Shown in pieces: positions 21,001 through 64,000 of a stretch of 64,000 bases of DNA. The stretch's first letter is position 1, and every line of letters begins with the position of its first letter. This DNA comes from Candidatus Obscuribacteraceae bacterium (GTDB taxonomy: Bacteria; Cyanobacteriota; Vampirovibrionia; Obscuribacterales; Obscuribacteraceae), in NCBI GenBank assembly GCA_044226015.1, contig JBGAHS010000003.1, forward strand, positions 224,001 through 288,000, given 5' to 3'. The position numbers are program-made.

Positions 21001-24000
21001 TTGTTCCGATGCTTTATTCTCTACCATGATTTCAAAGTCCTATTGATGATGCCAACCATGCATCGAATTTACTAAGCATCCCGTGAATTCCCAGTGAAAA
21101 CATATATGAACAGACATGCACTCATATCTTTCAATGAGCGTGCTGAATTGAATATTCGGGTTCTCCAAAAAGCATTTAAAACCAAAAACCCCCCTTTTGG
21201 GGAGGCTCCTGGTTGGCGTTGGCGGGGGAAAAACCGTTTAGCTGAAGAGGTTGGCGTCGCGGGCAGATGCAACCAACCAGTTGATACAACCTGGTGTTGC
21301 GAGACCGCCAGTTACACCGGCAGCGCCCCAGAGCACTCTCTTCATTGCATCTTGGGTGCCGGCAGCCATGTGCATGAAGCCCATGATCATTGTCGGACCG
21401 CCCCATGCGATGCCTAAAATTTCCATACCGTTTGCGATGATGTTCAGCAAAGCTTCTAAGTTTGCCAGGTTGTTAACACGGACGGTACCTGCAGTGTTAA
21501 CACCTTGAATAACGGTTGCATCGCCACCTTGTGGTCCAATCGTACCGTTTGTAGCACCTTGTAGCATAGGAGCTGCGGCAGCGCCACCTTGCTGTGTTTG
21601 AGAGCCAGTGTAGTTGCCGGTGTTTTGAGTTTGATTACCGGTTGCAGCAGTTGAATCGAACGCATCTTGTGCTAATGCTGGTCCTGCGAGTGCTGCCATA
21701 ATTCCGAACGAAAGAGCGACGCGAGTAATAGAATTACGCATGCGAATAACCTCCAGGAGTTCTCGTCATTTAGTTTTTTAGTAAGGTGATTTGAAAGAGT
21801 TGCAAGTGCAACCGCGTGATTAAAATTACGCGAGAAAAGAGGTGAAGTCAAGTACCTAATTTCAATTCAGCCGACATTTAATCTTGGAAACCCAAATAAA
21901 GGCACGCAAGCCAGACAGAGACTGAATAGTTTTGCCCGAGAAAGCTTCCGCTCGGAGAGTTTCGCCAGAGCTATCAGGATCTGATAAGTAGACATTGAAC
22001 GATAAGTTTCTATACCTCTGGCTGAACACAAGTTACCTCTGGCTGAACACAAGTTCCTCACAAAACGCGAGTACGATCTGATTTGAAAATTGTCTTTCCT
22101 ATTATGTGCAATGAGGACCAACGCACCAGCGACGCCTCATGGGGAACAACATGGCAAAAATTTTGATCGTCGAAGACGAAACAGACCTTGCTGCATGCTT
22201 ACAAAGCGCACTAGCAAAAGATCAACACATTGTAGAAATTATCGATAACGGCGAGGAAGCGGCGCGGCATCTTTCAACGTATGGATTTGATTTGATTATT
22301 CTCGACTGGATGCTACCTGGCATGAGCGGCATAGATGTATGCAAGCGATACCGAAAAAATGGTGGCGATGCACAAGTGATGATGCTGACAGCAAGGTCAC
22401 ATGTCGACGATCGAGCTGAAGGACTCGACGCCGGAGCCGATGATTACCTGGGAAAACCATTTCACATGAAAGAGTTCCTCGCTCGGGTCAGAGCAATGCT
22501 ACGACGCAGCAACCACACTCATTCGCATCTTCTCAAAATCGGTGATATTGTGATCGATACCAGTGCTTCTCACTTAGAATCTAACGACAAGAAAAGCAAA
22601 CTTCTCAGGAAAGAGCTGGACATTCTTGTATTCCTACTGAAGTATCCCGGGCGTTCCTTCACCGCAGAGGAGTTGCTCATGGTATTGTACTCGGTGCCTT
22701 TCTTTTGCCGCCTCATAGTTCTTAGAGCGAACCAATAATTTCCAGATCTTTGGTGATTTGAACATCGATCACACACTGATTTAACACTTCTCTGGCAAGA
22801 TGTAAAAGCGAGCCCTAAAATTCGGTTTATCTCATGCGAGCTATATTCGTGCGCGCGTCTATATTGCTGTGCCTATTTTCCGCCGCCCTGGCGTCTCAAG
22901 CGATTGCCTACGAGGAGAGATATTTGCCGCTAACAAACAATGTGCTCAGCAAACGCTTTCGTCAGCAATTACTCATTGACCCTCTCGAAAAAGGTAACGC
23001 AGTGAGCTTTGAAAAAACAAAACTATCAATTTCGGAAACTGGCCGATTGAATTGTTACGGTACAGACCAATTGGGTAAGAAATGGTCACTCACTGCAGGA
23101 AGCTGGAACGGCTGCGCATCAGTCTGGACCGCAGACCTCGACAAAAACGGCAAGAATGATCTCATTATTGCGATGCGGACACCCAGCGACGGTTACGAGC
23201 CAGGAGCACAACTAATCTTCCTCATGTTTGAAAAAAATGGTCGACCGGCGCCCTGGGCAGTGAGTGGATTCTTCGATATAGACGAGCATGGGCTGAAAGA
23301 CCTTCTCGATGTTGATGGCGACGGACATGCAGAATTGCTGAAACAAAGTATTAATGACGGCTATTGGCTCACCACCGTATACGAGTCTTTCAACGCGAAA
23401 TGGAAAAAGCTGAACAACTTTAATGGCAACGACGTGCCGCTCTATACTCGCTACACCGAAGAGGAAAACAGAACCGCTATCAAACCGCCACCCTATCGCC
23501 ATCCTTACGAACCCGACTATTCAAATGATAAATCTAATTCAGCTTTCTCACGGGGAGTTTTTGCCAGCTCAATTGATTGGAAAAAAAAGAAAGACGACCC
23601 CGTCATGTACCTTTCAAACAACCAACGCGTACGGCTCGCAAAATGCAGCGCGTCTGCCTATGTAAGCATTGACGATGAAACTGGTAGACGTATTGCATTC
23701 TTTTCCGCACGCGAGGTGACGAACAAGTTCTTGAACGAAATAAGGTCTCGCCATATGAAGGTAATTATCAAAGGAAACTCGAAGGGCGAGCTATCGAGCG
23801 AGATCGCTGCAAATGAGATAGCAGCGAAATCAAGCAATTCAGAATCAAACAATTGCGGAACCCCGCTAGACATTGCTCTTTTGAACAGCACAGAATTGCC
23901 CTGAGGCTCATCTAGAAGCCACTCGCTCCAGTGGGCTTTTTACACGCGGGGAGATCACGCCCCGACTTTATAGCGTCCTGTAGTGCATATGCAAATGCAA

Positions 24001-63000: not shown

Positions 63001-64000
63001 AGTGAAATCATCACAATCGAGTTATAACATTTACTATGCTATCGATATGGCATCAGCAGGTTGGTATTTAGCATCTTCCGCGCTTGGGCTTAAAGCGCTA
63101 AACGCCAAGCACGAAAAACTTGGAGGACCGGCTTGCTACACGGCTATCGTCGGAGACGGGTTGGGCATCACAGCAGTACCGCTCAGCACCTGGGGTGGTA
63201 ACTGGCTTTACAGCTACTATCGCAACAAACTGAAAAAACAGTTGAAAGAAGAATTGAAAGACACCGAAATTGAAGCCAAAGCCTCTCTCGAGAATTTGAA
63301 CAAAGAGCTTGCCTCAGCTGACATAGGCTTGCTTGAGTCAACAAAATCTTTGCGCGATCGCATCGCTGTGTACGTGCTCTGGTACTCGCGCTACGATAAG
63401 AATCTCAGCAAGCAAATCGCTGAACTCAGACACCAGGCTCGCGTGGCACACCAGGGATTGATCGCAGGTCCGCTGATTTCGGGGTCCTATCTGGCGGCAG
63501 ACATTCTTGCTACAGTAGCCTTCTATGGCGTACCAAATCGTCCGAGAGCTGGGGCTACATTGACATACGCGGGTGGAGTTTCCGGCACCGCCGGAGCTGG
63601 TTTCACCATTGGCTTGACGAATTACATTCTTGCCAACGAGCTACTTCATAGACGGAAATTGAAGAAACAAAATATTCTGCCCTCACAGTTACTTGCAGAA
63701 AGACTAAAAACACTAGAAGACCTCGAAGGAATTCTGAGCAAGAACAACTCCAGGCTTCCAGATGGGAAACAAAGGGTTCCCAAAAACCCCTTTGCTGAGG
63801 CAAAATAGCAAGGTTCACAAAGCTGCTTGAGGCAAACATGAGCCGAAAAGAATTTGAGAAGATCCTTACAGGATTCAATGTTGAAGTGCAGAATATCGCG
63901 ATAGAAACAAGAGCACTCGTTTTTGATGTATTACCGGAAACCGTTGAAGTCGTTTGGGAAAAACAAAAAATCGCCGGACTTGGAACCGGCCCCAAGAAAC

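Follow-up and report, generated by a model that had tools for sequence, protein, structure and literature searches.

The closest described counterparts of the locus studied here come from several lineages. The type IV secretion system (T4SS) of Patescibacteria (PMC12102498) is chromosomal and lineage-wide, uses the monoderm-type parts VirB4, PrgI/VirB3, VirB6 and a coupling protein, and is served by arrays of 2–11 VirB2-like pilin genes that lie in tandem or are separated by other genes. These pilins share a mean identity of 25% and at most 54%. The Bartonella Trw T4SS, for which a role in attachment is proposed (PMC12857230), has multiple VirB2 copies and no VirD4-like coupling protein. Vampirovibrio chlorellavorus belongs to the same class as the organism studied here, and its T-type, partly plasmid-borne T4SS has been proposed to function in prey attachment (PMC4451040). 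Proteins of the XrtN-system VIT (TIGR04477) and MSEP-CTERM (TIGR04286) types combine an N-terminal membrane bundle, a VIT domain and a C-terminal membrane tail. Obscuribacterales are little-studied, non-photosynthetic relatives of cyanobacteria; in the literature searched, we found no description of a comparable surface machine in the order and none of a multicopy pilin together with pilin-mimic tails.

In comparing these systems with that of Obscuribacterales, which likewise has chromosomal, lineage-wide, monoderm-type parts and pilin arrays, we noticed several differences. The order has a diderm host, two systems, a core relaxase and pilin-tailed VIT proteins, and the cores of its putative multicopy pilin, designated pilin B, are nearly invariant, unlike the divergent arrays reported from Patescibacteria (PMC12102498). 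The Trw genes vary in sequence and belong to their operon (PMC12857230), whereas those for pilin B show no such variation and are located outside the operon to which we assign them. The pilin-B module was present in 35/35 Obscuribacterales genomes and in 0/115 genomes from other orders of the class.

The pilin-B array

The window analyzed here is a stretch of 64,000 nucleotides; bare coordinates are window positions, and those with a prefix are contig positions, C6 being the contig that holds the window. Eight genes of this genome, five of them in the window, share a near-identical 85-residue C-terminal core. Copy 1 (21238..21741, minus strand) encodes 167 amino acids comprising a signal peptide of ~24 residues recognized by inspection, a Gly/Thr/Gln/Asn-rich extension, a conserved linker and the 85-residue helical-hairpin core; a terminator-like hairpin, a pattern match only, lies immediately 3' of it (21189..21204, minus). 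Copy 2 (29648..30151, minus) also encodes 167 amino acids, and its core is identical to that of copy 1 at 84 of 85 positions. Copy 3 (34150..34653, minus) has 167 residues when counted from the aligned start (the listed ORF start is 34746). Directly upstream of it is the gene for a 489-amino-acid protein (34774..36243, minus), either secreted or membrane-bound, that belongs to no known family. Copy 4 (37576..37899, minus) is a 5'-truncated recent duplicate without a signal peptide, 98% identical in DNA to copies 3 and 5, and is probably a remnant; the other seven of the eight copies are complete. Copy 5 (46685..47128, minus) encodes 147 amino acids, with a 20-codon deletion in its N-terminal extension, and copy 6 (C6:291518-292021) lies just past the window end.

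In relatives, a compact pilin-B array is flanked directly by FliB-like and ThiF-like genes. The same genes bound the six C6 copies, the ThiF-like gene downstream (17295..18143, minus) and the FliB-like gene upstream, just past the window end (C6:295003-296301). The preliminary description had counted eight dispersed, near-identical genes; the number holds, one member being truncated, but these shared boundaries show that the six genes on C6 did not disperse independently and instead represent an ancestral tandem array, since split by inserted genes. The ThiF-like neighbor was also considered as a pilin-modifying enzyme, a weak candidate that we discarded, since its sequence changes rapidly and 3 of 13 main-site loci do not have it. 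The palindrome TGAC-N4-GTCA, which has no strand, occurs upstream of copy 3 (34753..34764) and copy 5 (47229..47240) and at six sites in all, which precede four of the seven copies that are complete. It was not found at pilin-B copies outside the genus and gives no link between pilin B and operon B (described below). No sigma-70 site above chance was found around copy 1.

Pairwise core identity is 83–85 of 85 residues (98–100%), marginally wider than the 99–100% first given, while the DNA range and mean of the original estimate are borne out (77.6–98.0%, mean 84.3%, across the eight copies). Mean pS among the copies is 0.57 and mean pN 0.024, which supports the earlier proposal of purifying selection rather than antigenic variation. 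Dosage, also proposed earlier as the reason for multiple copies, is plausible because of codon bias: five of the eight copies lie at or above the 96th percentile of an index that is uncalibrated, having no highly expressed control genes. Small shares of pilin B were present in RNA runs from two metatranscriptomes; because the contigs span the gene alone and belong to relatives, they are no evidence of expression in this organism. The core is 92% identical across families. For an exposed pilin, a core that stays more than 90% identical throughout an order is unusual.

Two secretion-like operons and the identity of pilin B

Obscuribacterales carry two core T4SS-like operons, A and B. Their VirB4 proteins are paralogs with ~33% identity, and each was found in 20/21 relatives; the relaxase is core (21/21), and each genome has one VirD4 and one relaxase. 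In operon A, which contains VirB4, VirD4 and the relaxase, pilin A occupies the pilin slot before VirB6-PrgI-VirB4. Operon B contains VirB4, a PrgI/VirB3-sized protein and large VirB6-like membrane proteins, and lacks a pilin, coupling protein and relaxase of its own; no pilin match was found in it in 3/3 compact genomes read. The VirB6-like and VirB8-like labels used here derive from position and hydropathy only. As for an MPF_FATA-type affiliation of the two operons, the best model matches of the VirB4s are to TraC-F-type and CD1110, all below cut-off, and identity to plasmid VirB4s is ~25% at most among the matches listed. The pilin-B array is not inside a T4SS operon, and in this genome and in family f1 it is not beside virB3-virB4: in f1 the array and operon B are far apart or on other contigs. 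In the second family, f2, operon B starts ~9.3 kb from the array, a distance that rests on one genus. VirB4B of this assembly has two in-frame stops, yet the pilin-B copies stay constrained. With regard to pilin processing or cyclization, only two S26 peptidases are present, in tandem and distant from both operons.

Pilin B is likely VirB2-like. As in VirB2, TrbC and TraA, a signal peptide (recognized by inspection) precedes a small helical hairpin whose loop is short and basic, although hairpin hydropathy is low. The predicted model is a hairpin of H26-70 and H75-105 (pLDDT 81.5). All named Atlas neighbors belong to TrbC, T4SS_pilin, DUF4134, DUF2976, DUF3852 or DUF6750, with scores of 0.82–0.86, and pilin A draws four of the same families. 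Further evidence comes from plasmid pYRE of Myxococcus stipitatus, whose VirB2-slot protein (WP_342382169.1) matches pilin B; the gene for that protein stands directly before VirB3-sized and VirB4 genes. The alignment is gapless over 52 columns with equal loop length and scores 73, compared with 29.9 +/- 6.0 for shuffled controls, of which 0/2000 reached that score. Used as a query, the pYRE protein ranked the seven pilin-B copies in the gene set 1–7 of 7012 genes, and in the reverse search it was the reciprocal best match among 1827 plasmid ORFs (E 0.0009). pYRE is also the top-ranked plasmid match for both VirB4s, and its VirB2-slot protein matches PF18895 weakly (E 0.0017). The likeness has limits: the pYRE protein is an uncharacterized product of a single plasmid gene with a short N-terminus, its similarity to pilin B is weak, and VirB4 identity is 22–24%.

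Other searches were negative. Only one of nine plasmid VirB2-slot queries gave a significant match to pilin B, and combined profiles of these proteins gave none (best rank 4, E 0.87). Neither pilin A nor pilin B hit any Pfam or NCBIfam family, TrbC (PF04956) and T4SS_pilin (PF18895) included; genome searches with the TrbC and T4SS_pilin models returned nothing relevant, and searches with pilin B returned nothing from PDB sequences or plasmids. Profile comparisons of pilin B with pilin A, Maff2, and a Mbov_0395/PF18895 protein and its family were not significant (probabilities <2%), nor was hhalign with the pYRE protein (<2%), which itself had no relatives in the genome contigs or plasmids searched. 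Foldseek against PDB and VIA-align against the wide and viral library recovered generic helical hairpins (best Z 8.0) with no pilin among the matches listed, a result that speaks neither for nor against the fold. A four-copy complex prediction scored 0.01 and is evidence neither way. The VirB2-like label of the preliminary description gains the reciprocal pYRE match and a pilin-less operon B, but no family or fold match.

VIT-vWA proteins with pilin-like tails

The three giant proteins noted earlier are confirmed as C-terminal pilin fusions of 965 amino acids (C9:248904; VIT, E 3.3e-5), 1237 amino acids (C7:664808) and 1008 amino acids (C1:951942), the last ending in the tail of the operon-A pilin. 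Their vWA part, first proposed from paralog similarity, is now shown by structure: the ectodomain model (pLDDT 90.6) matches inter-alpha-inhibitor heavy chain 1 (PDB 6FPY) with a Foldseek E of 1.3e-22, revealing a VIT plus vWA fold at 13% identity, a likeness of fold only. Several fusion homologs also match Pfam VIT and VWA. Matches of the TIGR04477/TIGR04286 type are weak, occur on four fusions or paralogs and fall below cut-off. The fusion tail differs from that of VIT proteins sorted by exosortases (XrtN, XrtK) in being a two-helix pilin-like module with conserved ends; no pilin-tailed fusion has a PEP-CTERM-type single-helix tail with an adjacent exosortase, and no exosortase is found among the neighbors of C9:248904 or C7:664808. 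One VIT paralog (C6:354042) carries a PEP-CTERM-type tail, with an exosortase adjoining, at the position that the pilin tail occupies in fusions. In a VIT tree built by a quick method, pilin tails are present on two deeply separated classes.

Conservation across 68 fusion homologs is 0.91 in the N-motif and 0.77 in the C-tail, the two ends predicted to be periplasmic, and falls to 0.41 in the ectodomain and 0.29 in the hairpin and loop; the fusions were gathered by tail similarity, which inflates tail identity. This pattern of kept ends and a drifting hairpin recurs in pilin-A fusions. At synonymous sites, 33–83% of codons in the fusion ends differ from stand-alone copies. Gene conversion as the cause of conserved ends was rejected, since the protein is identical and synonymous sites have diverged.

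A model for the tails and its alternatives

The reading that we favor, at slightly better than even probability, is that pilin B is the dosage-amplified major pilin of system B and that the fusion tails are pilin-mimic docking or sorting tails gained more than once. Pilin B would be the major VirB2/TraA-like subunit of a type IV secretion-like machine, most likely operon B, that is encoded in the chromosome and passed on vertically. Its precursor would be exported via the signal peptide and sit in the inner membrane as a hairpin with both ends periplasmic before being polymerized into an attachment filament, additional gene copies supplying more subunit. VIT-vWA surface proteins would have captured pilin coding sequence, more than once, where a paralog has its PEP-CTERM-type sorting signal. 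Since only the two ends predicted to be periplasmic appear to be kept by selection, the tail would not be a shaft subunit; it would serve for recognition, allowing the protein to dock on the pilin pool, the assembly platform or a pilin-processing enzyme. It is tempting to speculate further that the pilin has turned into a sorting signal ("pilin-CTERM"): a pilin-maturing enzyme or platform would read the ends, and passengers would undergo cleavage, ligation or loading onto a domesticated conjugation machine shared by the whole order. Such sorting would be functionally interchangeable with the PEP-CTERM/exosortase route and would have arisen separately for two unrelated-looking pilins and several passenger families. 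We consider this extension less likely than not.

Pilin B might instead be no pilin at all. It could be an abundant protein with a structural or scaffolding role in the inner membrane, its conserved periplasmic ends forming a tag for self-association or processing that the fusions reuse, and the pilin likeness would be that of a generic glycine-rich hairpin. Many divergent stand-alone paralogs that keep the ends while hairpin and loop length vary freely would fit, as would Atlas scores below 0.9, the eight unmatched VirB2-slot queries, the missing family and fold matches and an array outside any T4SS operon. We consider this rather unlikely, given the gapless reciprocal pYRE match, the proximity of the array in f2 to an operon without a pilin, and the ends-kept fusion pattern in pilin A, which does occupy a pilin slot. 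Operons A and B could also form one composite machine, with a duplicated VirB4, several VirB6-like proteins, one coupling protein and one relaxase, in which pilins A and B co-assemble and chromosomal DNA is moved. The paralogous VirB4s, the single VirD4 and relaxase, and the co-occurrence of both VirB4s, both pilins and the relaxase in nearly all genomes agree with this arrangement; it becomes quite improbable when set against the separate PrgI-sized, VirB8-like, VirB6-like and DUF2225-like genes of each operon and the lack of significant profile similarity between the two pilins.

The preliminary description had read the fusions as adhesin-bearing minor pilins, and true minor pilins in the tip or shaft could display the VIT-vWA adhesin with its ITIH-like fold. 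In favor of this, capture can extend to the entire mature pilin with its lineage-specific N-terminal parts, some tails remain similar to the major pilin, and in 6/6 canonical-class fusions inspected DxSxS is intact and no more than one hydrophobic segment lies at the N-terminus. Most fusions, however, have an N-terminal bundle of ~five membrane helices, which predicts tethering at both ends, and a hairpin and loop that, besides being least conserved, are longer, more hydrophobic and more basic than in the stand-alone pilin. The MIDAS DxSxS is altered in both fusions of this genome; among 73 long fusions it is intact in 27, altered in 37 and unmatched by the pattern in 9. A VirB5-like minor pilin should accompany the machine in every genome and pass from the membrane into the filament. 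The fusions are accessory: a search for VIT ectodomain homologs was positive in 14/21 order relatives and negative in the other 7/21, which keep pilin B and include three genomes more than 90% complete. The minor-pilin reading is accordingly improbable, and the data agree better with the caveat raised at the outset, a possible role of the tail as a sorting signal. Passive membrane anchors, acquired owing to the abundance and mobility of the gene, would account for repeated capture by unrelated passengers and for two VIT proteins with partial or decayed pilin tails (C4:152798, C4:38891), with end identity ascribed to recent capture or gene conversion; ends that are identical as protein, diverged at synonymous sites and conserved far above the ectodomain already contradict this reading and leave it highly improbable.

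Under the favored model, large adhesin-like proteins appear to be addressed to a conjugative machine by pilin mimicry, possibly a targeting route not described before, and the fusions would mark residues that the machinery for maturation or assembly reads. A contact-dependent life of the order, whether attachment, predation or chromosomal DNA exchange, is suggested by its two core T4SS-like operons, its core relaxase and its amplified, near-invariant pilin. The wide presence claimed earlier holds in a separate search of 21/21 order relatives as well as in the 35/35 genomes, and the 85-residue core can serve as an order-specific marker. Further derivatives in this genome include a divergent stand-alone gene (C12:62548) and a paralog of the 489-amino-acid protein upstream of copy 3 in which the pilin module is inserted internally (C6:323214).

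Pilin-B copies and their ancestral array

The genome (8.19 Mb, 13 contigs), placed in Obscuribacterales from named homologs, carries eight genes that share one C-terminal core; tblastn and an iterated profile run across the whole genome recovered the full set that the preliminary description had reported. Five lie inside the window, which spans C6:224001-288000, a sixth on the same contig (C6) 3.5 kb outside it, and two on contig C3. The 28 pairwise comparisons of 85 codons gave a core DNA identity of 77.6–98.0% with a mean of 84.3%, in agreement with the earlier 78–98% and 84%; the protein identity of 99–100% did not hold, the cores being identical at 83–85 of 85 residues. 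Mean pS was 0.57 and mean pN 0.024. Copies 34150, 37576 and 46685 are recent duplicates (pS <0.1) and the remaining copies are near saturation. Copy 37576 has lost its signal peptide, and copy 46685 has lost 20 codons. A simple, uncalibrated codon index, on which, among 5083 genes, five of the eight copies reach the 96th percentile or higher and the others percentiles 91, 74 and 59, hints at high expression.

The gene was matched in 21 of 21 relatives within the order and in none of nine others, and its profile in 35/35 genomes of the order and 0/115 of other orders. A few order genomes gave weaker matches only, and a canonical copy is thus not established in every genome. In the second family the core is 78/85 identical. 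The main site, represented by 13 of the 20 fetched loci, holds an array of one to four copies. Upstream, 11 of the 13 have a gene for a FliB-like CxxCxxCC protein (two loci are cut off by the end of a contig); downstream, nine have a ThiF-like gene. In the studied genome the FliB-like marker, which adjoins the array in both families, is found at C6:295003-296301 (L025:9006-10301), and the ThiF-like marker at window position 17295. Since these markers flank the six C6 copies, gene order indicates that the copies belong to an old tandem array whose members have been separated by insertions of other genes, and are not dispersed genes as first described. No flagellin was found in the genome, which leaves the FliB-like protein without an obvious usual substrate; that it modifies pilin B is only a guess. 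A second FliB-like paralog lies at C1:14514, and two genus relatives carry separate, divergent pilin-B paralog arrays (~35–50% identity) at another locus (L046:8268-9914, L047:9369-10358).

One of the genes inserted in the array encodes a WGR-SMI1/KNR4-HEAT protein (window 49007-50833). An 1821-aa ORF with no Pfam family (38029-43494), which contains a 15-base repeat near 42496-42626, directly adjoins the truncated pilin-B copy. A response regulator at 22139-22738 is possibly truncated, its DNA-binding domain matching profile positions 3–35 of 77. Short intergenic tandem repeats occur at 33860-33979 (period 30), 43573-43672 (20), 47703-47933 (36–38) and 59713-59901 (13 bases). The palindrome TGAC-N4-GTCA stands upstream of four pilin-B copies (window 34753-34764 and 47229-47240; C6:292311 and 292332; C3:86619 and 86724) and is also present in three genus relatives; of its 27 intergenic occurrences genome-wide, 6 lie ahead of pilin-B genes.

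Pilin-like identity of pilin B

Pilin B is predicted to form a hairpin of 45 + 31 residues. Family models and a solved-structure sequence search named no pilin for it, nor did the matches listed by fold searches. Its named Atlas neighbours are the TrbC, T4SS_pilin, DUF4134, DUF2976, DUF3852 and DUF6750 clusters (0.82–0.86); those of pilin A, the pilin-like protein of operon A, include DUF4134, DUF2976, DUF3852 and TrbC (0.86–0.87). We also used as queries the pilin-slot genes of plasmids top-ranked for VirB4. One of them, from Myxococcus plasmid pYRE, encodes a protein that matches PF18895 weakly. Its alignment with pilin B covers 52 gap-free columns and scores 73, against 29.9 ± 6.0 for shuffled sequences (0/2000 as high). 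This query placed the seven pilin-B copies then in the gene set at ranks 1–7 of 7012 (E 0.003–0.017, next 0.67), and the reverse search ranked the pYRE protein first of 1827 ORFs. Eight other plasmid queries gave no pilin-B match, and combined profiles were not significant. On balance, pilin B is probably pilin-like.

The pilin-B module is real and order-defining, and is undescribed in the literature searchable here. We found no published description of the family, of operons A and B or of pilin-tailed VIT proteins in mostly open-access main texts; supplementary genome tables might list the genes. Arrays of 2–11 pilins in Patescibacteria have a mean identity of 25% (PMC12102498), in contrast to 83–85/85 for the pilin-B core.

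Two T4SS-like operons

Operon A (G000:C10:63035-90202; L016, L026) is a chromosomal VirB4–VirD4–Replic_Relax system with its own pilin. Four secreted low-complexity proteins are followed by the 142-aa pilin-like gene, a 1388-aa multi-pass protein, a DUF2225-like gene, a PrgI-sized gene, VirB4, a single-pass protein, VirD4 and Replic_Relax. The order pilin–VirB6–PrgI–VirB4 is that of annotated plasmid systems, and the operon is a candidate for domesticated chromosomal conjugation. Its components are core across the order: full-length pilin A occurs in 18/21 relatives (84–98% identity), VirB4A in 20/21 and the relaxase in 21/21. VirB4B, the paralog in operon B on contig C1, is likewise found in 20/21. 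Operon B further contains a PrgI-sized gene and encodes a lipoprotein and two large multi-pass proteins. In the three compact genomes read it carries neither a pilin nor VirD4 nor a relaxase. VirB6- and VirB8-like labels were assigned by position and hydropathy, these proteins having no family match. Published work treats VirB5/VirB6 roles in the Trw system (PMC12857230) and a T-type system in Vampirovibrio (PMC4451040).

A physical link between array and operon B was seen in one genus of the second family, where two G019 contigs share a 141-base overlap (99.3%) that places the array ~9.3 kb from the operon B start, separated by TPR, TrbI-like and SpoIID genes; one contig of G020 shows the same gene succession as far as the TPR gene. 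In the studied assembly VirB4B (G000:C1:183271-185976; L030) contains two adjacent in-frame stops; relatives in the genus have the gene intact. TadE/TadG-like genes are inserted in operon B there and absent from that position in three compact genomes. Additional genes for the large VirB6-like proteins of both operons lie elsewhere in the genome (C1:171194, C4:238902, C6:530165-535876). Apart from the T4SS loci, inspection identified two Tad/Flp-type pilus loci (G000:C9:379979-387297, C11:221017-228188), each with its own Flp-like pilin and prepilin-peptidase-like gene.

Pilin-tailed VIT-vWA proteins

The VIT/vWA-like domains proposed for the large fusions were confirmed: the ectodomain model of C9:248904 (residues 335–830, pLDDT 90.6) matches inter-alpha-inhibitor heavy chain 1 with E 1.3e-22. 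In most fusions the N-terminal part contains about five membrane helices. Among the best 120 of 594 matches, 93 longer ones were examined; 80 are at least 500 aa, and all 80 end in the pilin module. Identity of fusions to the stand-alone protein is 0.76 in the linker, 0.93 in the N-motif, 0.50 in the first helix, 0.23 in the loop, 0.40 in the second helix and 0.85 in the C-tail; stand-alone matches (n=119) reach 0.91–0.99 in all segments. Fusion hairpins are more hydrophobic and more basic, with loops of variable length. Conservation across 68 fusion homologs is far higher in the N-motif (0.91) and the C-tail (0.77) than in the ectodomain (0.41) or the hairpin (0.29). These sets were picked by tail similarity, with a partial control in that 9/10 best ectodomain matches also had a tail match. 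Ectodomain homologs were not found in 7/21 relatives, including G001, G011 and G016 (91–96% completeness). In the studied genome, residues identical between fusions and stand-alone genes differ in 33–83% of codons; selection, and not gene conversion, therefore accounts for the conserved ends.

The most likely reading is that a dosage-amplified major pilin B serves system B, which has no pilin or coupling protein of its own, and builds an attachment filament, while a pilin-mimic tail addresses the VIT-vWA proteins to the pilin pool, the platform or a maturation enzyme. We give this joint model a little better than an even chance; it would add a novel form to T4SS pilin biology and, possibly, a new sorting principle. 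A membrane scaffold that is not a pilin and carries a sorting tag seems an unlikely alternative. The preliminary description had the fusions as candidate adhesin-bearing minor pilins; the VIT-vWA fold stands, and the minor-pilin reading is not favoured. In solved VirB2-type pili, subunits contact one another through the hairpin and the loop lines the lumen. Both drift in the fusions, being their least conserved parts, which argues against shaft subunits. True minor pilins are a somewhat poorer prospect than the scaffold. An intact MIDAS motif (DxSxS) was seen in 6/6 inspected members of the canonical class, which remains the best place to seek a true tip adhesin. One composite machine of A and B is slightly more doubtful again, and tails that are passive anchors are very improbable.

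A tree of 36 VIT regions, built by a quick method, shows the pilin-B tail on two deeply separated classes; at least two changes are required by its well-supported branches. The VIT paralog C6:354042 instead has a PEP-CTERM-type tail, and its gene overlaps an exosortase gene. Pilin-A fusions likewise conserve their module's ends, also behind a Cys-rich N-terminal domain: a third fusion type (L051:6857-7495, L052:1915-2583, L054:6585-7301, L056:6792-7430) consists of this domain, a signal-like helix and a pilin-A module with kept ends.
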